Shown: in pieces, positions 6,818 to 39,616 of the stretch | How positions within the stretch are numbered: the stretch's first letter is position 1 | How the letters are laid out: every line of letters starts with the position of its first letter | Source of the DNA: Amphiscolops sp. MND2022 | Taxonomy: Eukaryota | Assembly: GCA_964187785.1 (NCBI GenBank) | Contig: OZ076409.1 | Location: forward strand, 21,082,001-21,146,000 | DNA: 64,000 nt | Direction: 5' to 3' | Notes under the pieces: model-generated | Databases searched by the model: none | The model's input: only the letters and a program-made list of their open reading frames with translations | Told to the model about the DNA's origin: nothing | Program-made: the position numbers and the translations under genes

Positions 6818-7056
6818 ATGAGACTTTTTTTGAAAAATTTGGATTGCACCAAAGGGTGCCCCCTTCATTTGTTTCGATATTTTGCAGCCGAATGGATGCT
6901 AAATAATTCCAAAGGGTCCCTCTTTTACATTTTTCGGCACTGTGACACTTTTGGGAGTTTCAATGAGCCCAAATAGTCCCCCTTTTAACAAGTTTAAAAA
7001 CTTCCTGCATTTTGAGCCTTAGATATAGCGCCGACTTTGGCCGTTCCCGGCTTGTT
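6818..7056 (-). mobile_element. Partial Helentron-type non-autonomous repeat (HINE/DINE-1-like), interrupted by element A
   Basis: Family terminus GAGCCTTAGATATAGCGCCGACTTTGGCCGTTCCCGGCTTGTT and internal TTTTCGGCACTGTG sub-repeats, shared with many copies in the window. Confidence 0.65.
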
Positions 7057-15890: not shown

Positions 15891-16539
15891 GCATGAGAGG
15901 CAGAAGTGGAAATCAATAATACAAACAAAAGACCACCAAGTCAAAGACGGGGGCTTCCCACTTTGCCGATTATCCTCTCGGCCGAAAAAAAAAAGAGTTT
16001 CACTTGGCCGAAAAATACTTAGCACTGCAATCTGATTGGCTGACGGGGAACGAAGTTCGTTCAAAGATGAAAAAAATGATTTTTTCAATTGTCTTCTAGT
16101 CAGCTATGTTCACATACTCCTAGTGCCCTAAATGCAGGAGCGAAGCGAAGCGGAGCGACGTGTCATATGGCCACGCCTCAATGTTGCTACTTGGCGAATT
16201 GATTGTCTAAATGCAGATGAAAAATCTAATGGAAGAACATAAATTTCGAAAGAATAGTTCCACAGCTGTGAAATTGCTTGCAAGTGTAAAAATGTTGATA
16301 TATTGCATTCTTTGTGACATAAATATAAAACGCTTTGACCAGTTGTCCTCGTACATCGTCCCATGTTACAAATGCTATTTCGTCTCAGCAGATGCACAAA
16401 TCAAAATTAAAATGTAGTACGTTCTGAAGACCTATATTTTTATGTCGCCTCCTGTCCTACGAAGAACCTAATGTAAGTGAATGATATTGTTGTGATGCCA
16501 TATTTGTGCGGGTTATTTTGTGTTATGTACAATCAGTAG

Positions 16540-18270
16540 TGTCGCAGGCTGCCGCCTGTGACGGTACTTTAATAACGACAACAGCGACAAGCCAGGAGAC
16601 ATTGCCCGGCACTTTGCCTACATTTTAAGCAAGTATATTTTGTATTTCAAAACTTACTTTTAGTAACAATATTTGTCCTCAAACCATTACATTTTCCAAT
16701 ACGTTGCAGTTTATATTAGTCTGTTAATTTTACGATTTGGGACAAGCCAAATCAGTTTGATGATGTATTTATTGTAGGATAGAATTAAAGTGCAAGGTTA
16801 ATTTGACGCAATAACAAACAACAAGCAAGTTAATCGCGAGAAGGAAACGTGTTCAAGTGCGGAAACGTCCTTTCTCGGCGACGTAACTTGTTGTACATCG
16901 ATAACCAATCACATCGTTCCTTTTGAAATGTTGGCGCTTTTATTACATAATGGCCGAATAAGGCCTTTTGACTTAACGCAGTGCACGTTTGCTGGTACTC
17001 ATGTCAAATGGCCGGTTCCGGCCAATTCATGCAATATAGTATTTTGTTGCCTAATTAAGCAAGTAATTACTCGGAGCTAACTTTACATGATTTAAACTAA
17101 ATTAAAGCATTTGCAGCGCTTTAATGTCCGTATAACCTTAACCTAAAGATGGACGATTAAGGCCATCTTACCATGTCTCTTTGAAAGCTGTGTATTTTAT
17201 GATTTTGAGCCTGTTCTGGCCCTAACATGAATGTGCATTCTCACATATATTTAGATTGTATTGAAGCAATATACACGCGATGATGCATTCCATTCTCAAT
17301 AACTCGTGTCGGCACGTGCCTTCACTGCACTCCGCTGTAAAGAATGTGAGCGGAGACATTTGTTGACGCTTTGATATGATGCCTTAGTTAATAACTGATT
17401 TGATATTTCTGTCTTGATCAAACGACTTTTGAATGCCATTCCCTAAATGTCCCCTAATAATATGCGGTTGTCGGGACATTCCCTGTGAAGTAATAAATCA
17501 CATGACCCCATTTTCTTGACTAGTAATGTAAAGTATGTGAATGTCATCCCCTCACGAGTATATATATATACCGATACTCAGCCTGAGTGGGACACAATTC
17601 ATTTGAGACGCTACTAGAAAGATTGAATTACAAACGGCTTCGCTGTTATTTTTTCCGTATTGAATAATTCATTGTTAATTCGGAACTGCTTCTATGCCTA
17701 CTACTAGAAAACAGAAAAAGGCAAGAAAGTCAGAAATGCTGTCAGATATCGAGAACATAGACATTATGTTAGGAGAAAATCATTTTAACACAAGAGAGAG
17801 AGAAGGCAGTTTGAACAGTAACTTGCCTAGAAGGTCCAGAAGCTTTGCAAGCAATGAGTCTGAGAATGAAAATGCAAATGTAAGAAGAAATCAGAGAAAT
17901 GATCACTTTAGAACAAATACCGAATATGATCAAAATTCAGTTACAGCCAACTCTAGTGCTGAGGTTAACAGGTTGTCAAGTGAATTGAATTCCCGCATTT
18001 CAGGGGAAATGGACGAGATGATGAATTCTGTAGGTGTTCAGATTCAGAGGGCCATAAATGATGCGATAAGTTCTCAGGTACTTCCTCAAATCCAAAACGT
18101 TATTATGGCCGGATCGGGACACGGGACCAGAAAAGGATGGGACGTTCCGTCCGAGAGACCGGAACTAAATTCTGAAGTTCAGCGAAACTTAAATGCAAAA
18201 AATAACTCAAGGAATGAACAAGATGGGAATCAGTCAGACAATGATTTTCCTGGGTTAAATGTTCATGACA
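16540..18270 (+). repeat. 5' LTR of element C
   Basis: Matches 30086-31816 with about 13 substitutions counted by eye and no indels. Confidence 0.97.
17558..17570 (+). promoter_or_regulatory. Putative TATA box in the LTR
   Basis: TATATATATA ~130 nt upstream of the gag ATG. The homologous position in element A reads TATAAA. Confidence 0.55.
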
Positions 18271-19365
18271 TGGTGACAGGAGACAACGAATTTCCAAATC
18301 CAGTTCCTGAGTTTCTCACAGGACGAATCTCATCCAGAAATCATCTCGACAGGTCCTTTGAGGACATCAACCTCGACACGACGATCCCAGCACAAGAGAG
18401 AATCGCTACGGCTGCTGACTCCGACCCTATCACTCGACTGGCAGACGTCTTGACTACAATGCAGAATAGACCGACAGCCCAACAACTCACCATACGCCCA
18501 GTCAACTCAAATACCATGACATTCGATGGCAAAAGTGAGAAATTCGAGCTGTTCGAAGACCTATTTCACACTATGATCAAGATGCAGCCAGAAATGACTG
18601 AGCAAATGAAGATCAATCACTTCCACTCTTTATTGAGGAAAAATGCTCTTCAGACATTCAGAAACATCAGCTCAAACAACCGGCAAACTCTAGAGGACGT
18701 ATTAGTCATCTTTAGACGAAAATACGTCAAGTCCGAGTCACAGGCGACCGCCAAACATAAATGGCACTGTCTGGTCTTCGATCCCAACACGATGAAACTG
18801 CCTGATTTTCTCGAAGAATTAAACCAAGGAGCCGAGAAGGCGTTTGGTGATCATGCGCAGAAAATGATTGACAGCTTGCTTTACCCAAAACTGCCACCAA
18901 AACTGAAACGGTCCGTCAACATGGCCAGATTAGAAAATGGCTCCTACGATGAGATAGTTGCTTATTTGGAGAGAGAACTAGAGCTTAACGCCCTCGAGGA
19001 GTCAGATGACCTACCGATAGCCACAATGACCTCCTCGACTACAAAACCTAAAACTCCTCTGTCCACAGGGCAACTGTCCGATATCACTTGCAATTACTGC
19101 AAGGAAAAGGGCCACATGGTCAAAGACTGCGAAAAACTGAAAAAGAAAAAAGAGAAAGATGCCCAACAAGGCAAGTCGACGCAGAAGAAAAAATATCCGG
19201 AGTGCGGCACTTGTGGCAAAAAGACCCACCCAGAGGAAAGATGTTGGCAAGGTGCTGGTGCACATCTTAAACACAAACGCACTAAGCCTGAGGACCCAAA
19301 TGACAATAAGCCCAACATCATCGAGCTCCCAATCCTCATGTTCTAATGTTGAGTCAAAAAACTAA
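17694..19365 (+). CDS. gag: Gag polyprotein (starts inside the LTR; 32-nt deletion near 19315 shifts the last codons)
   Basis: 550-aa ORF with a capsid-like region and two zinc knuckles. The true C-terminus SSSSQSS...ESKN* sits in another frame and matches element A. Confidence 0.92.
18271..18284 (+). promoter_or_regulatory. Primer-binding site of element C (lies within gag coding sequence)
   Basis: TGGTGACAGGAG directly after the LTR, complementary to a tRNA ending CUCCUGUCACCA. Leu-like; identity uncertain. Confidence 0.8.
19356..19362 (+). promoter_or_regulatory. -1 ribosomal frameshift heptamer A AAA AAC
   Basis: Correctly phased just before the gag TAA. The -1 frame (CTA ACT TCG...) is open into ORF 19461-20030. 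Conserved in element A. Confidence 0.85.
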
Positions 19366-22300
19366 CTTCGCCACGACTCCAATATAACGAATTAATATCT
19401 GTCCGACAATACATCAGATCGGACCCTCCAACGCAGACTTTCCACCAATACAATCAGCAATTGATGGGCTATCCCTCTGTTGTCTGGCAGCACCAGATAG
19501 AAAAAGCCACCATCATCACCTACAATAACACCCATTTGTTCCAGAAACCGATTCCTGTTTGGGACCCTGATGACACCACCACCTTCACTACACGGTTCAG
19601 GCCCATTCCCCTGATCGACGATTACAATCCAACATACATCGATCCAGACTACGGCAGAGATCCCTACTGGGACACCGAACTTTACAACCAAGATTCACTA
19701 CAAATTCAAAATGTCCTAGACGATATTGACCATTATAATAGAACAGTCCACGAGAACCCTCCAATTACCCATAACAAGAAAACAAGAGCGCTAATTGAAA
19801 ACTGGCAAATGAATGATGGCACAAACCATCCAGTGTTCCCAAATCCATTGGGGACCGAGACCCATGACAACAATGTTGAACCCATACCACAATCATTGCT
19901 AGACGAGAAACAGTTCCAAAATGTCTTAATCACTAGAGACGGTGAACCAGACTGTATACCCCTATCAACCAACATCAACCTCAAATGCAAAAAACGCATG
20001 TGTATTTCCCAATGGACTTTGGGGAATTGACCATTGACGGACTCATTGACACTGGAGCGCTGTCCAGTGCAATTCCTGAAATGGACCTCCGGAAAATTCG
20101 ACTTTTATCTCCACAATCCGTTATCCGGGAAGGTCCGCCTCCGAATTTCCAAATAATGGTCGCTAATGGGCAATTGGAAACTCCTAAGAGTACAATAGAC
20201 CACAAATTTGAAGTTGGTGACATCGAGTTTCATGAGATCTTTATAGTCATGGAACACCTGACAGGTCCGATTATTGGCCTAATGTTCCTTCAACGAAACC
20301 ATACAGTTCTGGACATGAGACAAGGAATACTGAATTTCCCGTTCTTCTCAATGCAGCTCAAAACAGCTGACCACAAATACTCGAATGTATTAGAACCAAT
20401 TCTCAACCCTATTGAGATAACTATTCCACCAAATGATAGAGTCCTAATTAGGACCAATTCCCTACTGTACCCTGAGAATGCTGTCACTGGAATTTTGCAA
20501 CCGAGCGACCTTCTACATGAAGAGGGCGACATCACATTCTGCCCAGCTCTGATCACTCTGAATGACGGCAATATATTGATACCAGTGAACAATTTTACAG
20601 ACCACCCATATAAACTCAAAAGGGGACTTCATATTGCCATATTCTCTGTAATGACGCCAGAACAGATGAAGTATGTCAAACCGGTAGACCCGGCATCAAC
20701 CTGGCACCTTTTGCAGAATGACCAGGAGCAGGCAGCCCACTATGTCAGCAGTCTCATCAAGACAAACAGAAATCCACAAAACTCCGAAAATTATTGGTTC
20801 CCGACTCCAGAAAATCTTGGAAATCCTGAGGAACACACACCTATACAAAAACGAATCCTTAGAGAATTACAGGCCTTACAGGACTTCGAGACACTCGACC
20901 CCACTACAGATGCAGAATCGCGTGCAAAATTTTTAGAAAACTTTGACTGGAAAGATTCCACCTTTAATCCTGAAGAGAAGAAGAAAATCGAGGAATTGTT
21001 AGTGGAATTCCATGACATCTTTGCACGACACCGATTTGATATAGGCATGAATGAGGAATTCAAGGTGAAACTGACGCCTAAGGACGATTCCCCAGCCTAT
21101 TGTCAAAGCCTTCCAGCTCCTATCAACTTGAAGGAGGACATCCTAGTTGAATTAGCCATGTTACACAAATATGGCATAATAACTACACTGCCATTTTCGA
21201 AATATGCAAGTCCAATATTCGCACAATAGAAGCCGAATGGGAAACTCCGACTCTTGGTTGACTTGAGAAAAATCAACAACCTCATCTCGGATGATTACAT
21301 CAACAATAATCACCCCGTCAGTACACTAGTTGATGCTGCCCAACACTTGGCAGGCAAAAAACTGTTCTGTAAATTAGACTGTTCGCAGGCATACCACTGC
21401 CTACCAATGGCCGACCAACGTTCAATCGAAATGTTGGCCTTCAATTTTGCCAGCCGCACATTCGCCTACAGACGTTTGGCACAAGGCCTTAGCCGATCAC
21501 TATCCGCATTCTCGAGTTTCATGAGGGAATACCTCGACAAAGTCATTAAAGCGGATCAGTGTGCCCAGTATGTGGACGATATCGGCATCGCAGCCAACGA
21601 TGTTGACCACCTCATGACCAACCTGAGAGCTACTTTCAAATGCATTCAGGAAGCAGGCCTTAAGTTAACAATGCACAAATGTCACTTCGGTGCAAAAGAA
21701 ATTGATTTTCTCGGACGGTATATTACCCCACAAGGCGTCAAACCCCAGAAACAGAACGTGCAAAACTTTCTGGAGAAAACCAAATTCCCGAAGTCGAAAA
21801 AGGCTTTACAACGATATTTGGGATTCCTAAACTACTACAGGAATTATGTCCCAAGACTCTCCGAACGCCTTGCTCCATTCTACAAGATGCTCAAAAATGA
21901 CGAAAAGGTCCTAATATCGAAAGAATTAGTCCAACAATTCGAAGAAATCAACAGAGCACTAGACAAATGTTGCGACTTGGCCCTACAGCAACCCATTCCA
22001 AACAAGCAAATAGCACTAATGACTGATGCAAGTTTTGGTGCAGCCGGGTACGCGGTCCTAATCGAAGACGACCCAAGCCAGAAATTTACGTCGCTCAGAA
22101 AATCGTATGCACCAGTCGCATATGGATCAAAAACTTTCACCCCAGCACAGATCAAAATGTCAATTTATGCCAAGGAATTCCTTGCAATCTATTTTGCATT
22201 CAAAGAATTTGGACATAACTTCTGGGGTGCGCCGAAACCGGTCATCATCCTTACGGACAACAAAGCTGTCACGAGATTTTTCCAAACAAAAATCATACCC

Positions 22301-24561
22301 CCAGCCCTGTGGATCGCGTGTGATTATGTCATTCAGTTCAATTTTGTCATAGCACACATCCCAGGGGCACAAAATACAGCTGCCGACTATTTGTCCCGAT
22401 TGGAAGCAGATCCGAAGGACAAATTGGTGATGAAAATTCGTGAAGATGTACAAACACTACCAATCGAAATCAATGTCCAATCCGCAGGGGTGTCACAAGA
22501 AGAACAAATCTTCTACACCAATGACGACGATGAGACAGAAGAACAGTATTGGGCAAGAAAAGAAGCAATCAGGAAAAATCCAGCAACTGATGAGCCCACT
22601 GTTACTATACAAACTTTGTCAACAAATCTGGTCAAGCAACACCCCGATATACAAATCCGATTGAAGAAAACGAACCAGATCATTATTGAGCAATCCAAGG
22701 ATGCAGTACTACAACAATTGAAGGCAAAACTCCTTCATGAAGATTATTCAGAAAACATGCTGCAACAGGATGCCCGATACAGACACTATGCAAATAATCT
22801 GGAACGAATTGTACTAAAGGACGAAATCCTGACAAGGCAATACTTTGATAAAACAGGGAACGTTAAATACCATCAAATTCTGCTCCCGCAACATTTGCTT
22901 CAGGAACTGCTTAAGTCTCTCCACGGGACAGCACATAAACATCCTGGGATTTCAAAAATGTTGCAGGAAATTAGACAGAGGTATTACTACGCTAGCATGG
23001 CTAAACACGTCAAAAAGTGGGTAGAAGGGTGCGAACAATGTGCCAGAGACAAAAGAGTCCCTAACGCAACGATAACACCTGAACTACTCAACTTGCCCGA
23101 ATGGGACCTTGGACCCGAAGACGCCATGCAAATCGACCTATTGCCGAATCCTCCCCCAAGTGGAGGATATGAAAATGTCCTAACGGCAATTGATGTATTC
23201 TCCAGATATTTGTTCGCCTATCCCCTCACGGACGCATCAGCGATCAATGTAGCAAAAGCGGTCATTGACATTATGACTAAACACTCATATCTACCAACGA
23301 CTCTTATCACTGATAAAGGTACTGCATTTACTTCTACAATTATTGCGGAGGTTACGCACATTTTGGGCATCACACTCAAATGTGCAACGACGAAACACCC
23401 GCAGACAATTGGGAAATTAGAGCGAACTCATGCCTCATTGAAAACAAATCTCAAAATGGCATGTGGAGAATATCGCCGACAATGGCACAAATACTTGCCA
23501 TTAGCAGTACTGAATCATAATACTAGTTATCACGCCAGCATCGGTTGTGAGCCTACGAGGGTATTCCACGGAAGAATTCCATTTAATATTTTGGATCACA
23601 AGCTTGGAAATAATCCAACGAGCAGATTAACCCCACAACCGAATTTGCTGAAGAAATCCAAAACCGGACAAAAATCCTGATTGACAAAACGAAACAGAGC
23701 ATTATGCAGTCGTATATCAAGTACAAAGAATATTACGACCGCAAAGCAAAAGCCGCTCCACTAAAGGAGAACGAATATTGTTTTGTCTTACAGCCGAAAG
23801 CGGACAATCAAGGATCAAAAATTCCATTCCGCGATTACCGTTGGGTGGGACCATTTGTAGTCCAAAAGGTTTTGCCAAATGAAAACTATATAGTACGACG
23901 GATCAATACGAACAAAACTCAAATTTTGCATCGCATTCGCCTTAAGAAGTTTGTCCCCAATCAACCGATTGAGGATAATTTCCGACAACAACAGTTGCAG
24001 CCAGATGAAGAATTTGTCATTCCGCAAGATGGTTTATACGTCATAACGTGGGAAACCGACTTTGGCGAGCAGCTAGTTACACGAGGCCGCGAGACTATTC
24101 CGACCAGCATGCCGAATGGCGAACGGCCGAACGCGCCAGAAGCGAATACAAAAGACGTAGCCGAGAATGAAGCGGATTACATAATCACGACTGACGAAAC
24201 AAGTTACGCTGACCACGCGGCGCGGAACCGGAATGAAAGATTAAATCATGACGTCACAAAAAAGAATGAAGCTAGTGAAGCGGCTAGCAATGACAAATCT
24301 GATTGGCCGAATCCGGCCGTTTCCCCAAAAAACCAAGAAAATTCATTGCCGAATACGGCAAATAGACCGGAAAACAATGAAAATTTTTCAGAAAGAAACT
24401 TGACGAATGAAAACGATACACAAGATTCTCCAAATAGGGGGGATGATATTATCGTGCCCGAAATATCCGAAAACGATGCTTGAAATGAGAGTCTGAGCCC
24501 TAGAGGAGGGAAATATAATCTCAGGCCTAACCCAAACTACTCAGAGGATTTTAGATACTAG
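19362..24561 (+). pseudogene. pol: Pol polyprotein: protease, dUTPase-like insert, RT, RNase H, integrase with GPF motif and acidic tail; mildly disrupted
   Basis: Motifs LIDTGA; YVDD; TDAS, KEFLA, TDNK; HHCC and D-D-E (QIDL, TDKG, LERT); WVGPF; ends YNLRPNPNYSEDFRY*. Lesions: 1-nt deletions at ~20001 and ~23617, stops at 21227 and 24481. Confidence 0.95.
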
Positions 24562-24779: not shown

Positions 24780-27700
24780 TTAAGGTTTAGAAGTTCCTGG
24801 GGCAGACTCCCCAACCACGGACGAAGCAGAGGATCGGGATCCACTTTTCTCCAGTCTTCTGCGTTTGGTACTACTAGGGAGCTTCAATGCACTCTCATCC
24901 GCAACAGAATCATCCATCCCGCCGCGGGCAGGAATTTTCTCCGGAGCAGCTAGCACAGTGCGGTAGGAGGACGACAAAGACTTGTAAATCTTGGATCTCC
25001 CAAAATTGTCAACATAAGTCCAAGGGTCATAACTGGGAGAGAAGGCTGACTGACCAAAGGATGCACTGAGCAAGGAAAACCTCGCCAAACTTGAGTCGTC
25101 ACTGCACAGAGTTGAAGAACCGGACACACCAGCCATGTAACTCTGGCAAGGGAGTATAACATCAGTAAATCTGCTATGCCTCCCAACAGTCGAAATCTTT
25201 CCAGCAATGACGTCTGGATAGTCAGGACTAGGTGTTGTAACGCACAGACAGCACAACTTAAAGAGGTATAACAAATAGCCTCGGGCCTGGAGAAATTCCA
25301 AATTGAGCAGGAAATCAATCAGATCAGAAGATGAATTTGACAGATCATAATCTGGACCTTAGCTGATCTGCAGGTGGTCGAGCAACTCAGTATATTGGTC
25401 CCGACAAGCTGACTCGTTAGCTTCGGCAACCCAGGAACGGAGACAGAAGGTACTATATAAGAGGTCAAAATGGCGGAGAGCCACCTCAGTTGGTCTCTTG
25501 AACAAGATGTACGGATCAAAAGTAGCGAGGCCTTTAATAATATCTGAACTCAGACCAGTCTGGCAAAGCACCGAGTTAATCAGATACTGGATGTAATGAA
25601 GTGCATCATTGACGAACCCAGTTTTCACGGTAGTAGCAGTCTTCTGGATAGCTGCCCGCTCCGACTTCTTTCCAAAGTGAAGCCCTTCGGCCCTAGCCTT
25701 ACTGGAAGTGGTCACTTTGTTGGTGAGCTTGAGCCGTAGTAGGAACTCATCTTCAGCCATGAAGGTAGCTTCACTCGTATGGAACTTCAGCAGCAGGAAC
25801 CAGGCATTTTCTAATGGGGCAGTGTCAGAGGTGTAACAACGGGAACACAGTTTGTATAAAAACCGGCTAGTTTTCCCGCATAGGAAGAAGGAGGCGTCTC
25901 GTCTGTATAAGAGATTCACTTTGAAACTGGATACATCTACAAACACAAACCAATGATGGCCTCATAAGGCCTACTAACGAGGATCAACTCACTATTTGCG
26001 AATACTAACAATCTCCAACGAGCTTGCAGAAGAACTCCAACTTCACTACGAAGAACTCATCGCAGATGAGGGACCATTCGAAACTTTGCACCTAAAAAAC
26101 AAAGTGGAGGAATGAATCCCTAAACTACCCCCTTCGTATGGTCCTAAGGTGAAAACCTGACTAATTAGCCCGAATCACAAAGCACACATGAAAACAACTA
26201 ACTCTATTGTGTGATCCCTGTCCTTCTTGTCTGGGTGCATGGACGGCTAGGTACCGAGCGATCGCCTTCCACTCAGCTATAAGTTCCCTGCACAGTGTAG
26301 GAACCATCAGTAGTTCCAGCTTATGGGAAGCGATAGCCTAAACATGGGAAGGCACGTGAACCAATGAAAAGGTTTGCTACCACGCCAACCCATTCCCTTT
26401 AGTATGATGCAGTTCACTGTGAAAATAAAGATGAGAAGGCTATCTACCTTGGAGAGTTCCGGACTGCGTAGAGCCCATTCCTCGTTGAGGGATCCACCCA
26501 GAGACACTAGCAGGGCTTGAAGCACGGAAAAGAAATCCAAGTGTCCAAAGACACTACAGCTAGACTTGTGCATCAGATACTGCAAGGATAGGCTCTCGAA
26601 CCGGAAACAACTTTGAACTCCACAGGTGAAAAATTCGGAGCAATCGACGACTCGGATCAGGTCAGCCGGACATCCAGAACAGGCCACGATCTCACAACGG
26701 GTAGACGTCACAGAAAGGAGCCGGGACAAAGACCCTAGCTCTCCAGCCAAATCAGTTGAGGGTAAGGAGCTTCGACAAATGTATACGCGACATAGTTCTG
26801 TGCCTCTCCAAAATCGAGCAGACATGTAGCAGTAGACCCCCTTGCTCTCGAATTCGATGCCAAAACACTGTTGGGTCATTATCTGGTCTGTGACATCTCC
26901 CATCACGGAGTTGAAGATGTGTTGGAAAATCGCCTGAGAGGGACAGATCAGACTTATCTTAAATAGATTAAGACTCAAGGAAGTGCCCTAAATGATAGTA
27001 CTTACAGATAGACACTCTTCGCTCAATCGAAATCGCAGAAAGCAGCCTGATGATTAGTATAGGAGCCGACTCTGGCCCACAAATTGCGCAAGACTGAGAG
27101 GTTACCATGCGTGTGGATGAAGTCTCCAATCAGACACAACTGCGTTCGGGAACGGGATTCTGGAGTAACCACAGCAGTTGTCGTACCCTTTATGAAATCT
27201 TCATAAAATGGAAATCGTTCTCCAACGTCAACGAGCTCTACATGGATGAACTTGGGAAGTTCTTTCGCTAACTCTATCTTTGTCAAGATTTTTCCATTCC
27301 ATCCTCGGACGCGGTGCTGGATTCTTCCGCTGACTGGGTCGGTGCTCTTTAAGTGCTCGTATCTCCACCGCTCATCGCGTCGGAGATGCCTTTCTGAGCG
27401 GTGGTGACGAAGTATCTCAAATGCTCCTTTTGTTTTGATGGAAAAGTTTTTCTTGCACATATGACACCAGACCATGAGGGGATTGTGCAAAGGATCTGCT
27501 GGGCCTGATATAAAGGAGCGTGTCTAGCCAATTTTCGCAAAAAATTCTTCTCTCATTGGAATTCCACGTTGGGGCGCTCGTCTCTCCCTTTTCTGCATTT
27601 TAGATTTGACAGATTTTTGGTCCCTGGTCTCTTTGGTTTTCTCCTGTATTTCCAACAAGGTAGCGTCCTGACTGCTGACCCCACTATTCTCGGTTTCAAC

Positions 27701-28917
27701 GGTCCGTTGTTCGGACGGGTGGACCACCGTGGAAGAAGAGGCTTGGGGTAGTGTAGGTGTCTGCTCGAAGGTCTCCGAAATTAGAGCCATCTCCGTGGCA
27801 CTATCGCTCTCACCAAGGAAAGAAGACTCTCCTGTGCCCCCTGAGCTTTCAACCCCAGTCTGGGTATTTGGATCACTATCCGTCTCACTCATGCTCGATT
27901 CATCTCCATATCCCGAGCGGGTGTTTGGGCTCGTCCTCTACTCTGAAAATGGGCTGTTTTTGATGGGGCAACAGCGGGGGTTCCTCTGACGGCATCCAGG
28001 ACCATCCGTTCCATTGTTGAATATGACATCCGCAAAGTCGCGTCAGTGAGCACTCTGAGGAGGTTATACACTTGTGTTTCCGTAAAAGCTACCGCTGGAT
28101 GTCCAACGGGTAACCTGAAAGACTTGTTCTCTTCAAAATATTGTTTGAGCAAGGCCCTGCTCCGTCCTTATAATTGGGGAAGTCCATCAATCTCCACGGG
28201 CACACCAGGTATCCTTGCCCCACTCGGTCCTTGATGTTGTGTACAGAAACCGAGTTCGTCTCCTCCATCGGTTCCTGATTCCATGTCCACCGGGTTGCGT
28301 CCATAAAACTCAAAGACGTCGAAATGGGACGTGTCCTCAGCAGAGCTGTCTTGTCCACTATGACTGGGCGGGAAGTAAGTTTTGGGTCGCCCACTGGGCA
28401 AAGCAGGGGCATCTTGAACTGACGAAGTAGTATCCTCGCCTGCTGGATCAGGAGCTTGTTCTTGCGTTGATAATGTCAAATCTGATGTCAAACGCAGTTC
28501 CGGCAGTTGAGAGCCAAGAGTAGTGGCAACGTGTAGAACGGATTCAAGTCCAGATAGATTGGCAACGGGATCTCTATGTTTGGGAGATGATATTGGGGTA
28601 CTGGACCGTTCAATTCCCTGATTAAGACTGGCATCTAAAGAATCCAAAAGTCCAAGGTCCTGACCGGGAATAGCACTCGACGTCGATACAGCAGTGAGTT
28701 GGCTAGTCCGCTCTGCCCGTTCAATCTTCTCAACAACGGACTCAGCATAAGCAGTGACATCCTGCTCACTATCCTGGCTAAGTGGGGAAAAGTCTGGGAG
28801 GGGTAGTGGTGCAGGAGCGTTACTAGAAACTGCCTTCCCAGATCCGTCATCGGCAATTACCGTCTTCACAGACTCGATAGCTTGAGATGAGGTTGGTGCT
28901 TCAAGGTTTTCTGCCAT
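24780..28917 (-). CDS. Antisense spliced cargo gene: disordered N-terminus, BED-type zinc finger, degenerate hAT-transposase-like body, C-terminal NLS (this copy is disrupted)
   Basis: Exons 28917-27006, 26933-26448, 26337-26203, 26091-26010 and 25936-24780, joined by four GT-AG introns that keep the frame. Contains WCHMCKKNFSIKTKGAFEILRHHRSERH and KRRRLEK. In-frame stops at 28168, 27524 and 25359; frameshifts at ~27915 and ~27023. Confidence 0.8.
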
Positions 28918-28989
28918 CTGATTCTCTAAACAGAAGGGAATAAAATGTAGCGGTATGCTTCCTTGATAGTAATCCATTTACCGCGTTAG

Positions 28990-29045
28990 AAATCTTCCGG
29001 AAGTTCTCTCAAATGCAAATGGAACACGTGATCACGTGTTCAACA
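28990..29045. promoter_or_regulatory. Motif cluster in the divergent spacer (putative internal bidirectional promoter)
   Basis: CTTCCGGAAG palindrome (28994-29003), octamer ATGCAAAT (29013-29020) and perfect 20-bp palindrome GAACACGTGATCACGTGTTC (29022-29041). Confidence 0.55.
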
Positions 29046-29388
29046 AAAGAAACAGGAAGCAATTGTGAACAAATTTCAGTCCTGATCAAACTGAGTTTGT
29101 CTGAAAATATTATAGAAAACCAAACCAACCTGAGGCTGACATTCTGAGTCAAGAAGGCAAATCCGGGTAAACATCAGGTTATCAAAGGGAGCTGACTAAT
29201 TATGAAATTCCATTCAAGGATGTTTGTGACGAATCGGGGCAATTGACCAAAGTTTTAACCGCCAAACTGAAACTTCGGGAAAAAGCCTAACTCGGCTAGT
29301 TTCTTGGTTCAGACGAATTCATTCTACCTAAAACTTCATCTCAACTCAGTTGCCTCTACTAGCTTCAAAAATAGCAAAGAAAGTCATC

Positions 29389-30174
29389 ATGAACAAATAT
29401 AACCTCGCAAGGAAACTATTCGGTCTGGAAGAATCTGACTCTGATGATTCTGAGAGATCAGTTATATATATATCGAGCAGCGAGGGAGAGTCATCAGATT
29501 GGGAGACCGACTGTTCTACAGACACGGAGCAGCTTGTTGCAAGAATCGAAAGAGAAGTCACCTCCAGCCCCGTGCTAATTGGGGGCCGCATAATGACTAT
29601 GGAGGAATCTTCAGAAGACGAACCAGAAGCTGGCCCCAGTTCTTCCCAGATACGAACAGACATGACTCCGAAGTTTGACCACAAGTACTTTGACGAGGAG
29701 ATGTGTTACGCTCCCCCAAAGAAAGCAGGCAAATCTCGGATTGAAATTTGCAAAACCCTAATGCCCGTGCCAGAGTCGCCTATGTCACCGCCTGATCACG
29801 AAAGAGGGCCGAGTATGGACACCCCCCTGATGCAGCCTGGTATGGGAGGTTTTCACGCCTCCTACCACGTGCAAAACACCAGGCCCTACGAAAATATTAG
29901 CACGAAGTTATATTCAGGATGCATGGTCTGTGGCAGATCCTCAGAGGCTATCAAGAAAGAGAATGTGGAATGGTACGTCGCAAGGTCCAAGCCTAGAGGG
30001 GAACCCGAATACATAACGAAGATCAGAAGGGAAGCGTACGAAAAAGGACTAAACCCAGGCGCTTTTCTCTTCATAACACCCGCAGTGTCGCAGGCTGCCG
30101 CCTGTGACGGTACTTTAATAACGACAACAGCGACAAGCCAGGAGACATTGCCCGGAACTTTGCCTACATTTTAA
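29389..30174 (+). CDS. ORF3: acidic, Ser/Pro-rich 261-aa accessory protein ending inside the 3' LTR
   Basis: Intact ORF from ATG 29389. The last 89 nt lie in the LTR and are conserved, mostly with synonymous changes, in the element A LTR. Confidence 0.82.
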   Translation: MNKYNLARKLFGLEESDSDDSERSVIYISSSEGESSDWETDCSTDTEQLVARIEREVTSSPVLIGGRIMTMEESSEDEPEAGPSSSQIRTDMTPKFDHKYFDEEMCYAPPKKAGKSRIEICKTLMPVPESPMSPPDHERGPSMDTPLMQPGMGGFHASYHVQNTRPYENISTKLYSGCMVCGRSSEAIKKENVEWYVARSKPRGEPEYITKIRREAYEKGLNPGAFLFITPAVSQAAACDGTLITTTATSQETLPGTLPTF

Positions 30175-31816
30175 GCAAGTATATTTTGTATTTCAAAACT
30201 TACTTTTAGTAACAATATTTGTCCTCAAACCATTACATTTTCCAATACGTTGCAGTTTTTATTAGTCTGTTAATTTTACGATTTGGGACAAGCCAAATCA
30301 GTTTGATGATGTATTTATTGTAGGATAGAATTAAAGTGCAAGGTTAATTTGATGCAATAACAAACAACAAGCAAGTTAATCGCGAGAAGGAAACGTGTTC
30401 AAGTGCGGAAACGTCCTTTCTCGGCGACGTAACTTGTTGTACATCGATAACCAATCACATCCTTCCTTTTGAAATGTTGGCGCTTTTATTACATAATGGC
30501 CGAATAAGGCCTTTTGACTTAACGCAGTGCAAGTTTGCTGGTACTCATGTCAAATGGCCGGTTCCGGCCAATTCATGCAATATAGTATTTTGTTGCCTAA
30601 TTAAGCAAGTAATTACTCGGAGCTAACTTTACATGATTTAAACTAAATTAAAGCATTTGTAGCGCTTTAATGTCCGTATAACCTTAACCTAAAGATGGAC
30701 GATTAAGGCCATCTTACCATGTCTCTTTGAAAGCTGTGTATTTTATGATTTTGAGCCTATTCTGGCCCTAACATGAATGTGCATTCTCACATATATTTAG
30801 ATTGTATTGAAGCAATATACACGCGATGATGCATTCCATTCTCAATAACTCGTGTCGGCACGTGCCTTCACTGCACTCCGCTGTAAAGAATGTGAGCGGA
30901 GACATTTGTTGACGCTTTGATATGATGCCTTAGTTAATAACTGATTTGATATTTCTGTCTTGATCAAACGACTTTTGAATGCCATTCCCTAAATGTCCCC
31001 TAATAATATGCGGTTGTCGGGACATTCCCTGTGAAGTAATAAATCACATGACCCCATTTTCTTGACTAGTAATGTAAAGTATGTGAATGTCATCCCCTCA
31101 CGAGTATATATATATACCGATACTCAGCCTGAGTGGGACACAATTCATTTGAGACGCTACTAGAAAGATTGAATTACAAACGGCTTCGCTGTTATTTTTT
31201 CCGTATTGAATAATTCATTGTTAATTCGAAACTGCTTCTATGCCTACTACTAGAAAACAGAAAAAGGCAAGAAAGTCAGAAATGCTGTCAGATATCGAGA
31301 ACATAGACATTATGTTAGGAGAAAATCATTTTAACACAAGAGAGAGAGAAGGCAGTTTGAACAGTAACTTGCCTAGAAGGTCCAGAAGCTTTGCAAGCAA
31401 TGAGTCTGAGAATGAAAATGCAAATGTAAGAAGAAATCAGAGAAATGATCACTTTAGAACAAATACCGAATATGATCAAAATTCAGTTACAGCCAACTCT
31501 AGTGCTGAGATTAACAGGTTGTCAAGTGAATTGAATTCCCGCATTTCACGGGAAATGGACGAGATGATGAATTCTGTAGGTGTTCAGATTCAGAGGGCCA
31601 TAAATGATGCGATAAGTACTCAGGTACTTCCTCAAATCCAAAACGTTATTATGGCCGGATCGGGACACGGGACCAGAAAAGGATGGGACGTTCCGTCCGA
31701 GAGACCGGAACTAAATTCCGAAGTTCAGCGAAACTTAAATGCAAAAAATAACTCAAGGAATGAACAAGATGGGAATCAGTCAGACAATGATTTTCCTGGG
31801 TTATATGTTCATGACA
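30086..31816 (+). repeat. 3' LTR of element C (carries the ORF3 C-terminus and a second copy of the gag N-terminus, 31240-31816)
   Basis: Direct repeat of 16540-18270, followed by the TSD AGTAG. Confidence 0.97.
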
Positions 31817-33826: not shown

Positions 33827-36800
33827 TGTCATATTCGGTTCATTCCGGTTTGACCTCTACCGAGTTTCGGTACACAAAACTGTATGTCTAGATGTCTAGC
33901 CTACCTGTTTATTGATAAACAAAAATTTGCTGCGCATTCAATTAGATACTGCAGTATATACATTTGGTATCTACAGTATAGTCAGTGAACTATAGAAATT
34001 ATCTTAACACTTCTTTTAACCTAGAGCTTAGTTGTTGAGAATAGAACATGGAGCAGTCAGCCCATTTTTAAACAAATTGTAAACTTCATAACAAAAGAAA
34101 GCCATGACAGAAAAAAACACAGTACCGAACCTAGACGCAAGGGCTTTGGACGGAAATGCAATATTCACACAGAGACAGTGGTTGGAACGATTCCGGCAGT
34201 TCACTAAACGGGAACATAAAAAGTCCCACCACTAATGAAAGGAAAAGACATCACAGTAAACGAGTGGATCGTTAAAGAACAGCTTATCCTGGAAGATTTC
34301 ATCTGGGGTGTGGGACCCGAAGCACTGTACCGAATAACCCGTGCCAAGTATAAAACGGAAGCGGACATTATCAAAATAAAGGATTTAATCCGGTTATTCA
34401 CCGAATACTACTTACCGAAACGCAATACCCATCACCGTCGCGGCAATTTTTCTGGGCAAATCAAACGGAGGAAGAAACACCCGAAGACTTTTGGAGAAGG
34501 TTAATTGAAATCGAAAAATAATGCAATTTCAGTACATAATCAGCTGGAGAGCTACTGATTTCCAAACATATGACAGCTATCACCGACAAAAAATTTACAG
34601 GACAAAATGATGAAAAAAAACACTGGAACTGAGGAAGACGATCGAACTAATCAACTGAACAAATATGAAAAGTAGAACAAGAAAAATACGATACCAGAGG
34701 CACTAATTTCGGCAAAAGAAAGACACATGATAAAAAAGAACCGATACAGAGAATGGAAATAAATGTTCGGTGCGAAATCAAAAATTAGACCGACCGGAAA
34801 TATACCATGCAGATTTTGTGGAGCTCCGAACTCAACATCATTACATAAATGCCCAGCAATAGACATAAATTGCAACAAATGCGGAAAAAAGGACAGTACG
34901 CAAAGGTATGCAGACAAACATATACCAACAACCGAACAGTGAAAAGACTAACCGCAGAAGAAACTGGTGACCGAGACGAAACATCAAGTGAATCATAAGA
35001 GAGCATACACCACATCAAAGCGACAAAGAAAAATTAAGAAAAGAACAAACAATTCATGGCAACAGTGAAAATAAACGGAAGAAAGAAAGACTTCATATTC
35101 GATACCGGATCATCGATATCAATAATGCCAGCGGCCGAAAACGTATTAGAGCTAACCGGGATACAAAAAGTCACAAACAGATACCAAGACGAGAACAAGA
35201 ACGAAGTAAAGTTCCGAGGAAAAGTCCCCGTAGACATGGAATACGAAAATAACAAACAAAAAATATGTTTCCTGATAATCGAAGGAACAGACATAACACC
35301 ATTACTAGGGATGGACTGGATGAGAAATAGCAAGCTAACAATCGGTAAAATACAATGGGCCGAAAATAACCAGTCAGAACGCAAGAAAGTCTTCAACAAT
35401 TTTCCGAACCTGTTTGAAAATATCGAAACAATAAAAGACACCGAAATAAAACCCAACAAAAAGCCAGACCGGTACCGTTTCACCTACAAGACGACGTAGG
35501 ACGAGAACTAGAAAAATTAAAAAAGACCGGATGTTTGGAATAGATCAATGACGTCGATGAAGATTGCTTTGTATCACCGTAGTAATAACTGTAAAAAGTG
35601 GTAAACCGGTAAAAATAGCATTAGACTCACGGAAACTAAACGACAGTTGTACCAAAATGAGACCACATATGCCGAACATGGAGGAGTTATTAAACCAAAT
35701 TTCGGAAGAAATCACACGCGACCGAACAGTACAACTATTTATAACAAAAACAGATTTAGATTACGCATACGGACAGATGAAATTGTCCGAAAAAACAAGC
35801 CGACAATGCGTATTTGCGATAACCGAGCGTTAATTTAACGGATACTACCTATTCAAAAAAAAGTTCTACGGTCTCTCCGATATACCAACGATATTTCAAG
35901 ATACAATTGACCGAACACTCGGATACAGTACACCAGCTTGGTTAGACGACATCATTGCAGTAACCCGGGGGATCAAACAAAAACACGAGAAAAAACTATT
36001 TGATAATCTGATCAAACTAGAAAAAGCCGGAAACCGAGCGAGTAAAAGAAAATCTGAATTTTTTATGAATCAGACGAAGTGGTTGGGCCACGAGATTGAC
36101 GAAAATGGAATAAAACCTTTTGAAGAAAACGCAGAAGCCAATTCAAAACTGAACCCACCGCAAGATACAAAAGAACTGAAATCACTTCTCGGAGCAACAC
36201 AATACATGACAAAACTTTTGCCGAAACTTTCGGAACGAACAAATAGACTCCAAAAACTACTGAAGAAAAATGGAACGTGGAATTTGGGAACCGAACAAGA
36301 AGAATTTGGAAAAAAAAACAAATGTTGACCGAAGGCCCATGTCTAGCACACTACGCAAACGAAAAAGAAAAAATAGTAACGACCGACGCAAGTTCAACCT
36401 GACTGGGAATTACACTATGGCAAAAACAAGAGGACGGAATCACGAAACCGATAGCATACGGGAGTCGATATTTGAATGAAACCGAACAGAAATATTCCAT
36501 CGGTGTACTAGAATTAGTGGCAATGGTATGGGGATCAGAAAAATTCCAACTTTATTTATATGGAAAAAAGTTCTTTACACTTTACATCTTTACACCGACC
36601 ACCAAGCACGCACTAGAATCATTGATAAAGAGAAACCGAAGCAATAATCAATACAATGCGAGATTAGCGAGATGGTTGGACCGCCTAACTCATTTCCATA
36701 TAGCAATACAGCATATCGCAGGCAGCATTTTGAAATTTACCGACCATCTCAGCAGAAATCCGGTAAGGGGAGCATCGCCGGAAGAAAATACGATGAGAAG

Positions 36801-39616
36801 AATACGTAATTAATATACTCGTCGAAAAGTCATACTTAAACTTGAAATACGGACGACTCTTCACGGACCAATCAAAATGTAGGCAAACCATATCCGAAAG
36901 AAAGAAAATTGAGCACAAATAGAACCAATCACAAGCGAATGGAACATTCGAGAACAAGAACCACGTGAACGAAACCAAACAGAACAAAATAACAACATCC
37001 GGGCAATTCGATATTAGCACTCTGACATTCAGTAAACTGAGCAAAGAAAACGAAAGTGAGAAAATGGATCGTGAAAACTTTTACCATTGGGGGGGGCTAC
37101 CAGAGAAATCATGAACAATATTAGAAGAAGGAACTACAGACCCGAAGCAAAAAGATTGGTGGAGCAGCGAAACGCATTATCACGGTCGGGAACATTGAGA
37201 CGCCGGTACGACCATCAAACACAAAGAACCATCTTTGCACCATCCTGACCAAACAGACGGAGTAGAGAAGAAATTGCCGAGATAGATGCGTATCTTATCC
37301 GGAGAGCGAACAGAATTGGAGGCGGTTATCAACCGATAGAGATCGAGGAACAGCAAGAAGAACCAAAAGAAATACGGGAAGAAGGAGAGATTTCACAAGC
37401 AGCCGAGACCGAGGAAGACAGCGCGATTATGCTGGGCGACAATTAACAATCGTGAATTTGCCAAAATATAATTATTACCGACGGTAAAGAAGCGAAATAC
37501 ATACAAAAAAACATCGTCGGAAAACTCACCACGAAGAAAAATCAACTGAAGACTTCATCAAAAAAGCGGAATTCGAGTTCATGATTGATCTAAAATTTTT
37601 GATCTCCAAAACAGCGATTGACCTCGAGCTAGCCCGAGTCAGAACCAGTATGCGCCGAGGGGACATGAAGACGATTCCAGATGGCTTTCTAGCAGTGTTC
37701 GACAAACTCTTAATCAGATGGGGGCCTCATATTTGTCGACGACCAAATCGTTATCCCGATAGACTTCTGAAAACGACTACTGGTATCTTGAATTTCGGTC
37801 ACTCCAGCATCACCAAAATGACGTCAGAAGCAAAAAGTACTTTGGTGGTCGGGCATGAAACAAGATATCGAGAACAAGGCCAAGGACTGCACCGCATGCC
37901 TAGCATCAGGTAAAGGCCCTAAAAACAAATTATCGAAAACTAGAAAAATTATCCAAACCGTCAAGAAATACGAATAGATTTCACCGGAAAGTTACAAAAC
38001 AAAATGTTACACGGCGAAGTGCAAATATTAATAGAGGTAAATAGATTCAGCAAATGGCCTACCGTAAAAACTTGCAAAACCTCGAAGGGGTAATCAATTT
38101 TCTTACGAGTAACTTTGATTTATACGGAATACCCGAAAAAAACAGACCGACAAAGGAGGAGCATTTATCTCGAAGAAATATAAACAATTCTGTAAAAAAA
38201 CCCGAAACATTGAAATATACTATTGTACACCCAGAATGCACACCGGAAACGGAGTAGTAGAGAGATCGAAACGAACACTGAAAAATTTGATAATGGCGAA
38301 TCTAGAAGACGGACAAAATTTAACCGAAAGTGTAAACCGAGCATTACGGGTAATGCACTTCACAATACATACCTGATTGAAAATAACACCGTTTGAATTA
38401 CATCACGGAAGAAAACCGAGAACCGAATTAACGAATATCGTTAGAAACGGAAACCTTTCTTGTCTAATTGGTCTTGGTAGAAAATTTCAGCACCGAGCAG
38501 ACCGAAAACACCAGTTTATGTGGGCAAAGATGCGGATGGAAAAGTAAAAAACCACATAATCATGGCAAAAACCAAGACCGAGGAGAGACAGAAGAATGAT
38601 GGTCAGATGTCACCAAAAAAGAAAAAATTGGTTAGATATCCCTTCTATTTTGTTGAAACGATTTACCAGAAAAAATCAGTAGAAGGATATTTTCAAAATA
38701 AAATATTAACCGCAGTAAGGGGGACTGAAAGTACCGTGAAAACGGACACCAGAAAAATAATCAACCAAAAATTTTTTCGGACCCATTATTTCAGACCGAA
38801 CGAAGAACGAAAAGGGAGCCGGCAATCAACGCAAGCGCCTAAATCAACCCGAAGAATAGACATTGTCTACGGGGCTTGGACGGCAAGTACGGACGCTGGG
38901 ACGAAATACTCTGTGATATACTAAACGGAAAATTGAAGATCGTCTATAACCGGAAAGCAACCGACACCGAGGCAGACGATGACGATGAGGATGACGGAAA
39001 ATTTCCGGAACGGAACGGAACACCGATTATCTATGATATTTCCAAACGCGACGGAAGGTACGCACCCATATGGACAAATCCGGAAGAGGATGCACTACAA
39101 ATTCACACAGATATCTGGTAAGAATTTAGAAACAAGTACAAGGCGATCAAATCGAAATAGCAAAAAACCGAATAGATACGACAGCATACCATATACTGGA
39201 ACTTTCTGGAGCTAGAAAATATAGGGATAAACATGTATTGTTTATAATACTGGAAACCCGTGGACCAGAGCGAAAGGGACACCATAACCGGAAGAGATCC
39301 AAAAGCCATCAGATTTTCTATCCGGAGACGAAACGCCAAATGGGCCCTCCAACCGAGTTTGGGAAGGAGAAGAGAGATGAGGAAATGTCATATTCGGTTC
39401 ATTCCGGTTGGACCTCTACCGAGTTTCGTTACACAAAACTGTATGTCTAGATGTCTAGCCTACCTGTATATTCTGTTTATTGATAAACAAAATTTTGCTG
39501 TGCATTTAATTAGATACCGCATTATATACATTTGGTATCTACAGTATAGTCAGTGAACTATAGAAATTATCTCAACACTTCTTTTATTCTAGAGCTTAGT
39601 TGTTGAGAATAGAACA
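33827..39616 (+). mobile_element. Decayed Ty3/Gypsy LTR retrotransposon, element D (5.8 kb)
   Basis: LTRs 33827-34048 and 39386-39616 (TGTCATA...AGAACA). PBS TGGAGCAGTCAG. Purine tract 39361-39385. Imperfect 4-bp TSD (ACGG/AGGG). Confidence 0.92.
34104..39215 (+). pseudogene. gag-pol relics of element D
   Basis: Fragments FIFDTGSSISI (protease), ALDSRKLN/DLDYAYGQ/WLDD (RT), TDAS and YSIGVLEL (RNase H), and integrase remnants. Numerous stops and frameshifts. Confidence 0.88.

Follow-up and report, generated by a model that had tools for sequence, protein, structure and literature searches.

Antisense accessory genes have been described in plant Ty3/Gypsy retrotransposons, where they are called aORF-3R; examples are maize Grande gene23, rice RIRE2, Silene Retand, and Phaseolus PvRetro13 (PMC7264820, PMC11963269). 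In the available portions of these two papers, the function of the plant antisense open reading frames (ORFs) is described as unestablished. A fungal case, brtn, is an antisense gene in Boty-like Gypsy elements of Botrytis cinerea and Sclerotinia (Zhao et al. 2011, as cited in the available part of PMC7264820), and the same text mentions the antisense proteins of retroviruses. In addition, the available part of a study of rotifers describes long terminal repeat (LTR) elements with captured third ORFs in sense orientation (PMC5408684). Our literature search, which had incomplete coverage, found only these plant, fungal, and sense-ORF rotifer cases and no antisense accessory gene in an animal element; the first-pass annotation of the DNA analyzed here had pointed to a plant precedent and to no animal Gypsy lineage with a spliced hAT-derived gene. 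We examined a stretch of 64,000 nucleotides (nt) from Amphiscolops sp. MND2022 (contig OZ076409.1, positions 21,082,001 to 21,146,000), which is referred to as the window, and we focused on a long antisense gene inside an LTR retrotransposon. We estimated at roughly 0.7 the probability that this gene represents an animal Ty3/Gypsy-like clade with a spliced, selected antisense accessory gene between integrase and the 3' LTR.

The carrier of the antisense gene is a Ty3/Gypsy-like LTR retrotransposon of 14.6 kb, a label that is based on the LTRs and the domain order (the DUF1759 match in gag was below threshold). The antisense gene occupies positions 28977-24780 of the minus strand, between pol and the 3' LTR, and consists of five exons. 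Downstream of pol, every long open frame was on the minus strand, and the frame ran through once four introns with phases 0, 0, 0, and 1 were removed. The resulting coding sequence was 3834 nt (1277 codons), and exon lengths in most copies were 1972, 486, 135, 82, and 1157 nt. The parts of the gene are listed below; copy counts refer to the window copy and 12 others, L042 and L043 are two distant lineages in the same genome, and dN/dS is the ratio of nonsynonymous to synonymous substitution rates.

27006..28977, minus strand: exon 1, with a weakly conserved acidic and Ser-rich N-terminus, a conserved LPVGHP... block, a zinc finger, and a conserved region
27384..27466 (approximate), minus strand: C-x2-C...H-x4/5-H finger with a BED-like pattern, kept across lineages
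26934..27005, minus strand: intron 1, 72 nt, phase 0; GT and AG in 13 of 13 copies
26448..26933, minus strand: exon 2, 162 codons; predicted helix, three strands, and helix; candidate start of an RNase-H-like core
26338..26447, minus strand: intron 2, 110 nt, phase 0; GT in 13 of 13 and AG in 11 of 13 copies; 109-113 nt among copies
26203..26337, minus strand: exon 3, 135 nt; 36-64% identical in three distant lineages; dN/dS 0.05-0.09
26092..26202, minus strand: intron 3, 111 nt, phase 0; GT and AG in 13 of 13 copies; 109-112 nt among copies, 65 nt in L042, 110 nt in L043
26010..26091, minus strand: exon 4, 82 nt; 46-81% identical in L042 and L043; dN/dS 0.07-0.17
25937..26009, minus strand: intron 4, 73 nt, phase 1; GT and AG in 13 of 13 copies; 72-74 nt among copies; same position in L042 and L043
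24780..25936, minus strand: exon 5 and stop codon; all-alpha domain, YDPW...FGRSKIYKSL block, KRRR-like basic patch, and Ser-rich tail; dN/dS 0.05-0.07

The first-pass annotation had placed the start of the gene at 28917. We moved it to the first ATG at 28977, which was kept in other copies, including divergent ones. The same annotation had proposed that the scattered minus-strand frames form one gene after splicing. This was borne out in that the frame joined into 1277 codons, with the reservation that the window copy still contained three stop codons and two deletions. The stop codons were at 28170-28168 and 27526-27524 in exon 1 and at 25361-25359 in exon 5, and each corresponded to a sense codon in all 12 other copies. 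The 1-nt deletions were near 27914 and 27025, both in exon 1.

The four introns had been proposed in the first-pass annotation, and GT-AG boundaries were found at exactly the positions that it gave. Across the 13 copies and four introns, GT was kept at 52 of 52 donors and AG at 50 of 52 acceptors (102 of 104 sites). Outside the splice sites the introns were less conserved than the exons: relative to the subfamily represented by L016, introns were 65-72% identical and exons were 71-81% identical, and the corresponding values for subfamily L019 were 60-67% and 68-82%. Intron lengths shifted by one to four bases among copies, in non-multiples of three, and exon indels were rare. In L042 and L043, GT-AG was present at all four codon positions in introns that were unrelated in sequence and 65-129 nt long, and the antisense proteins of these lineages were only 30-47% and 59-81% identical. 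The two small exons that the annotation had added without an entry in the list of ORFs (exons 3 and 4) proved to be real, and they recurred in distant lineages.

Additional support for the exon 1/2 junction came from P0264, a 635-amino-acid (aa) public ORF in which the N-terminal block, the finger, and exon 2 are in one piece. From the W of the DF[DE]W motif to the EFE motif, P0264 and the spliced exon 1/2 product each had 32 residues. P0264 thus has the signature of a relative that lacks intron 1, and it bears out the junction independently. Taken together, the comparisons of sequences indicated that the four introns are probably real, with positions and GT-AG dinucleotides kept while sequence and length drift, and it was from these comparisons that splicing was inferred. 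L044, another distant lineage, was considered as a second lineage without intron 1 and was rejected. Its intron-1 donor (GTAAGT) was present, and a deletion at L044:6300-6341 (minus strand) had removed the 3' part of the intron together with the first codons of exon 2. Only P0264 remained as a relative without intron 1.

Selection on the gene was estimated with the Nei-Gojobori method in nine exon segments, using pairwise alignments of the window copy with subfamilies L016 and L019; the alignments were between genomic copies, some of which were decayed. For the window and L016, dN/dS values in the nine segments were 0.20, 0.11, 0.08, 0.04, 0.05, 0.09, 0.17, 0.05, and 0.07. For the window and L019, the values were 0.03-0.14, and two segments were incomputable because synonymous sites were saturated. 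Two shifted control frames yielded values that were mostly 1.2-3, with a range of 0.45-7.2 (exon-5 segment set aside). Integrase served as a comparator in the same pairs, and its dN/dS was 0.08-0.23 in the core and 0.22-0.36 in the C-terminus. The zinc-finger region, exon 2, and exon 5 (0.03-0.07) were constrained like the integrase core, and the N-terminal 270 codons were the least constrained part of the gene (0.14-0.21). These results indicated that purifying selection constrains the antisense gene as strongly as it does the integrase core. In the frame proposed by the first-pass annotation, which had suggested dN/dS as a check, the values of 0.03-0.20 were not neutral.

The gene was also linked to pol throughout the genome. 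A DNA search of the 1.07-Gb assembly yielded 57 matches at 30 loci; full-length copies were 92-98% identical, and subfamilies were found at 75-78% and 66-69%. All 25 loci that reached beyond the 3' end of the antisense gene continued into the 3' end of pol, and the remaining five (L021, L023, and L025-L027) covered only the 5' part of the gene. Three distant lineages that were found with a protein query (L042-L044) displayed the same arrangement, in which exons 5 to 1 come after pol and run on the opposite strand, although exon 4 of L044 was undetected at E<=1e-3. In these lineages, pol was 56-94% identical and the antisense protein was 29-81% identical, and the lineages with the closer pol had the closer antisense gene. 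No stand-alone copy without adjoining pol was found among the 28 loci that reached the 3' end of the gene. Thus, the genome-wide linkage that had been listed for checking was found in 25 of 25 testable loci and in 3 of 3 distant lineages. The antisense gene belongs to the element as an integral component under selection, and the whole clade carries it.

Relatives of the gene were numerous. In the same genome, a first look with the P0264 query gave 12,071 candidates, and the 69 that were scored contained 136 matches; exon-1 frames of 860-1019 aa were mostly open. Exon 5 had 240 relatives of similar length in public collections, and those that were listed or aligned were 48-96% identical. Exon 2 had 127 public-collection relatives, and a profile search with exon 2 matched 367 cluster representatives, of which 220 had E<=1e-10. 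None of the database relatives had a name or a Pfam domain, and all were ORFs of exon size. A search for longer annotated proteins (682-2000 aa) containing exon 5 found none, which is weak evidence only.

The most recognizable feature of the predicted protein was the zinc finger. The C-x2-C...H-x4/5-H pattern was conserved in seven of the eight sequences that covered it (window, L003, L016, L042, L043, L044, and P0264); in the eighth, P0333, Ser replaced the first Cys. A strongly conserved DQRWRYEHL block followed the finger. The finger had been called BED-type in the first-pass annotation, and the evidence on this assignment was mixed: the C-x2-C...H pattern was conserved across lineages and Atlas leads pointed to zf-BED clusters, whereas Pfam zf-BED was unmatched and the hhalign probability was 0.1%. 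Other domain searches were also negative. No Pfam family matched at E<=10 for any exon, for the window pieces, or for five further proteins scanned singly, and none matched in 191 scans of family members from three alignments (77, 62, and 52 sequences, with a few proteins scanned twice). A profile search of the PDB with exon 2 returned nothing, the search with P0264 returned only a Kelch protein at E 0.08, and the profile search with exon 5 returned only a cytochrome subunit at E 0.58.

Structure prediction was confident for part of exon 5 and poor for exon 2. The AlphaFold model of exon 2, which contained a helix, three strands, and a helix, had low confidence, with a predicted local distance difference test score (pLDDT) of 51. 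In the case of exon 5, AlphaFold2 placed residues 23-237 at pLDDT 78-96, and this region was all helical. The last 150 residues of exon 5 were predicted to be disordered, yet they hold the conserved YDPW...FGRSKIYKSL block, the basic patch, and the Ser-rich tail. Exon-5 relatives in databases were alignable at 48-82% protein identity, and the protein of distant lineages in the genome was still detectable at 29-47%. The searches and the folding used single exons and natural ORFs rather than a spliced and repaired consensus, which probably made the structural test a weak one.

The first-pass annotation had proposed that the protein descends from a hAT transposase. This descent was not shown: Pfam, PDB, and hhalign were negative, and a Hermes-like structure was detected only below threshold. 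The structural evidence came from the exon-2 model. In a Foldseek search, four Hermes entries were at ranks 3, 15, 20, and 43 of 350,542 chains (E 1.0-2.4), and after re-alignment six Hermes entries (2bw3, 4d1q, 6dww, 6dwz, 8edg, and 8sjd) were at ranks 2, 3, 6, 7, 8, and 9 of 999. The re-aligned Hermes rows all fell on residues about 149-253, which is the start of the catalytic domain, and they had the longest coverage and the lowest root-mean-square deviation in the list (77-80 residues at 2.8-3.1 A, with 2-9% sequence identity). Hermes was a family named beforehand, and it was 4th of 48,161 chains. The Foldseek top 50 also contained RNase H1, the RuvC domain of Cas12, and a reverse transcriptase (RT) complex. 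In the Atlas, language-model look-alikes of the finger exon were CGGBP1-like, zf-BED, and GTF2IRD2 clusters (0.90-0.93), and those of exon 5 were GTF2IRD2-like/FAM200 clusters and a cluster in which 47% of the members carry Dimer_Tnp_hAT (0.90). Raw material for capture was present in the form of many genuine hAT elements, given that Dimer_Tnp_hAT matched at 150 places in the genome, several of them with open intronless frames (e.g., L036-L040). The hAT comparators that we used were five intronless transposases of 597-697 aa from this genome; all matched Dimer_Tnp_hAT, and some also matched zf-BED, DUF659, or the Hermes DNA-binding domain.

A number of results weighed against hAT ancestry, and others weighed against a functional spliced gene. 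All sequence-based tests for hAT (Pfam, PDB sequence, and hhalign) were negative. Comparisons of four family alignments with the five hAT transposases by hhalign resulted in probabilities of 3.1%, 0.07%, 0.10%, and 0.20%, and a forced global hhalign of the RNase-H half gave 0.2%. The hATC domain (PF05699) was unmatched at E<=10 in 62 family members, and its hhalign probability was 0.07%. For the exon-5 model, Foldseek returned nothing at E<=0.001, and Hermes was absent from the 586 re-aligned chains of Foldseek's top 587. No DDE residues, CxxH motif, or RW motif could be assigned, the Atlas flagged the exon-5 family lead as probably wrong (one of the 10 best matches agreed), and the exon-2 model behind the Hermes matches was the low-confidence one. 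In terms of the gene itself, copies contained 0-12 disruptions, and only one of 13 was free of them, so many present-day copies are unable to make the antisense protein; alignment error may inflate the counts for the two most divergent copies. The evidence for splicing and expression was comparative. In addition, no AATAAA or ATTAAA was found within 480 nt downstream of the antisense stop codon, and no TATA-like motif was found upstream of the antisense gene in the window copy. A by-eye alignment of motifs to hAT (strands, an HTG-like helix, and the CxxH position) was dropped when hhalign failed to reproduce it. Buster-type hAT transposases were outside the comparison because a DUF4371 (PF14291) search yielded no match in this genome, and it yielded none in control genomes either.

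Given this evidence, we placed at about even odds the idea that the antisense protein is a highly diverged hAT-type transposase, probably without catalytic activity, that was taken over long ago. The fuller proposal, that an animal LTR clade took over a hAT transposase and keeps it as a spliced antisense gene needed in trans, is a tentative one that we rated a little below an even chance. The same layout and selection could also belong to a protein that is unrelated to hAT, either an orphan protein with a zinc finger or the product of a host gene that was captured long ago, and we regarded this as quite possible, although short of an even bet. On this account, the likeness to Hermes would reflect a common beta-beta-beta-alpha arrangement in a poor model. 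The uniformly negative sequence and profile tests fit such a protein, as does the Atlas flag on exon 5, and the antisense ORFs of plant elements are likewise without clear relatives in the available part of one account (PMC7264820). An unrelated protein would leave unexplained the high rank of Hermes, its hold on six of the top nine re-aligned rows over a constant segment, and the further RNase-H-like folds in the top 50. It would also leave unexplained why two separate exons yielded BED, GTF2IRD2, and hAT-type look-alikes and why the domain order (finger, strands, helical domain) fits hAT.

The other explanations were far less probable. It is very unlikely that a hAT transposon nested in one copy was passively copied along, and as a recent event this was refuted. 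Nested insertions are common, and hAT is abundant here (150 Dimer_Tnp_hAT matches, with open frames of about 600-700 aa). Nonetheless, the genuine hAT genes examined in the genome were intronless and unrelated in sequence, and the antisense gene was present in lineages whose pol proteins differ by up to 44% and with which it diverged in step. The dN/dS values of 0.03-0.2 across lineages are incompatible with passive carriage. There were also no terminal inverted repeats at the borders: inverted repeats of at least 40 nt (exact seed 14) were absent from 14000-36000, and no inverted 10-mer was shared by the two borders. Terminal inverted repeats with an 8-bp target-site duplication were what the first-pass annotation had named as the sign of a nested transposon; the absence of such repeats is expected if the retroelement acquired the gene alone and left the rest of the transposon behind. 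That one family recently transduced a fragment of a host gene, in the manner of retroviral oncogenes and with no role for the element, was also judged very unlikely. According to the available portion of PMC11963269, cases of transduction by LTR elements have been recorded in both plants and animals, but here the gene was in all examined copies and in three distant lineages, was strongly constrained, and had no pol-less copy among the 28 loci that reach its 3' end. Its antisense orientation and retained introns are also unlike transduced cDNAs, which are in sense. A similarly small chance was assigned to the idea that the antisense unit acts at the RNA level, for example by giving rise to double-stranded or small RNAs that regulate the element, and that the open frame is incidental. 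Noncoding antisense transcripts are known for micropia and TART in the available part of PMC7264820, and the absence of a protein family match would suit an RNA role. However, the third-position excess and the low dN/dS were confined to one frame, exon-5 relatives aligned at 48-82% identity, the protein of distant lineages was detectable at 29-47%, and the Cys and His residues of the finger were conserved.

For the spliced, selected accessory gene that we favor, the orientation of the gene suggests how introns could survive reverse transcription. Introns that lie on the strand opposite the genomic RNA escape removal from it. The splice signals of the antisense gene would be unseen in the genomic RNA, and the introns would be copied in each cycle because the signals sit opposite it. 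Transcription would have to start from the gene's own promoter, which would be in a spacer of roughly 1 kb that is shared head to head with a sense gene, ORF3. The presumed promoter site and ORF3 have the following positions in the window.

28978..29331, no strand assigned: inter-gene region between the divergent genes, presumed site of the antisense promoter
29389..30174, plus strand: sense ORF3, first ATG at 29389, frame open from 29332, extending 90 nt into the 3' LTR

In the window copy, about 600 bp were missing after position 29164; the 12 other copies all had 456-638 bp there. ORF3 has about 260 codons, is acidic and Ser-rich, and is head to head with the antisense gene. It matched no Pfam family. 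It was conserved in all examined copies and was under purifying selection (0.08-0.26 nonsynonymous differences per site, pN, versus 0.43-0.87 synonymous differences per site, pS). ORF3 was far more diverged between subfamilies than its surroundings: the window and L005 were about 74% identical here and about 94% identical elsewhere. This divergence suggests an exchange of modules between lineages.

The features of the antisense protein suggest that it binds DNA in the nucleus and acts in trans on behalf of the element, because it would combine a disordered acidic and Ser-rich N-terminus, a BED-like finger, a beta-beta-beta-alpha unit, a helical domain, and a KRRR patch. It could be a regulator of the element's chromatin or transcription (a transactivator or an anti-silencing factor), or it could be an integration tether. 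By analogy with the plant antisense ORFs and the retroviral protein HBZ, we prefer such a regulator or tether role, with somewhat better than even odds if the protein is real. We do not think that the antisense protein is a second recombinase.

The remainder of the element, listed below, had the organization of an LTR retrotransposon.

16538..17640, plus strand: 5' LTR, start exact and end approximate
17679..19346, plus strand: gag, with zf-CCHC and DUF1759 matches that were each below the Pfam cut-off
19353..24483, plus strand: pol, encoding protease, RT, RNase H, and integrase, in four ORF pieces in the window copy
30084..31186, plus strand: 3' LTR, followed by a second, truncated internal part (start of gag, to 31816)

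Pfam matches in pol were gag-asp_proteas, RVT_1, RT_RNaseH, Integrase_H2C2, and rve, and gag, protease, RT, RNase H, and integrase were in that order along 17679-24483. Comparison of the window with itself revealed a direct repeat in which 16538-18270 matched 30084-31816 with 99.25% identity (13 mismatches in 1733 nt); the LTRs proper (16538-17640 and 30084-31186) differed by seven mismatches. The end of the 5' LTR is only approximate because the repeat continues into gag, and it follows from the same extension that a truncated internal part trails the 3' LTR. Tandem LTR-internal-LTR-internal arrays, rather than single insertions, were observed at 30084-31816 of the window and among copies on contig C12 of the same genome, where three copies of a related lineage were located at 14845904, 14860369, and 14874839, with spacings of 14,465-14,470 bp.

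The window copy is dead: its antisense gene carries five frame-breaking lesions and the upstream deletion. Its pol is also broken or recoded: a stop codon interrupts the frame at 21227-21229, where RT begins, and the frame changes from the gag-proximal ORF to protease (about 19350-20030) and again within integrase (23614-23680). Most of the lesions probably predate or outpace the divergence of the LTRs, because the two LTRs show only 7 differences over about 1100 positions.

Several other features were observed in the window. A related element in inverted orientation is at 1-6820 (minus strand) and is 77-87% identical over LTR, gag, and pol; it runs off the start of the window, and its antisense-gene region falls outside the view. 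An unrelated LTR-element pol remnant with protease, an RT fragment, and RT_RNaseH is at 35038-36810 (plus strand). Lastly, three exon-sized ORFs at 59923-62970 (minus strand) contain immunoglobulin I-set or Ig_3 domains (E down to 8e-19); they belong to a host gene and mark the genome as that of an animal.

In plant and fungal Gypsy elements, antisense accessory genes have received little study, and a function has been established for none of them. The gene described here provides a large, abundant, and strongly constrained animal example, with hundreds of relatives in public data to which the searched database assigns no name or Pfam domain. Annotation of retrotransposons by gag and pol only misses real genes, and the exon-sized ORFs of this family were unnamed in the protein collection that we searched. 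If our reading of the gene is true, the gene and its introns would have persisted through thousands of retrotranspositions, because splicing of the genomic RNA never acts on the strand that carries the gene. If the hAT link is also true, one transposon class would have co-opted the machinery of another, rather than the host doing so, and the hAT-derived protein might bind element DNA and block silencing, or it might steer integration. Such a DNA-binding protein and its own element would be a tractable system for studying how retroelements control chromatin and target choice.

Several known systems share part of this picture. ZBED family members, GTF2IRD2, and CGGBP1 are host genes domesticated from hAT transposases. 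The antisense protein resembles their products in its BED-type finger pattern, its unrecognizable catalytic motifs, and its presumed DNA binding. The resemblance to them here comes from Atlas cluster names only, their Pfam families were unmatched, and the taker would be a retrotransposon rather than a host. Hermes was the best-covering structural match of the exon-2 model and has the same order of finger, strands, and helical domain; unlike Hermes, the antisense gene has introns and had no hATC match, assignable DDE residues, or terminal inverted repeats. Human T-cell leukemia virus type 1 (HTLV-1) HBZ and human immunodeficiency virus type 1 (HIV-1) ASP are small antisense retroviral proteins driven by the 3' LTR, and HBZ is spliced and regulates transcription. 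These proteins and the one described here are accessory proteins encoded opposite gag-pol, but the gene described here is internal and very large and encodes a different fold. Like brtn, in the available description, it is an extra antisense gene of a Ty3/Gypsy element whose host is not a plant, and it occupies the interval between pol and the 3' LTR; the host of brtn is fungal, and the two were compared by description rather than by sequence.

The closest parallel is the plant aORF-3R. In the available portions of the two plant papers (PMC7264820, PMC11963269), aORF-3R is also located between pol and the 3' LTR and antisense to gag-pol, is present in most family copies, and is conserved about as well as the other proteins of the element. 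Its own promoter has been shown for Grande, and a nuclear or DNA-binding role is suspected, as we propose here. The Retand ORFs are reported there to carry Transposase_28 (PF04195), which was unmatched in every Pfam scan of the present family, and the word "intron" does not appear in the text of either paper. The gene described here differs from aORF-3R in its animal host, in an unrelated protein that is far larger at 1277 codons, and in its four conserved spliceosomal introns. Thus, what is new relative to the known systems is the animal host, a very large new protein family, the four conserved introns, and a possible transposase ancestry.

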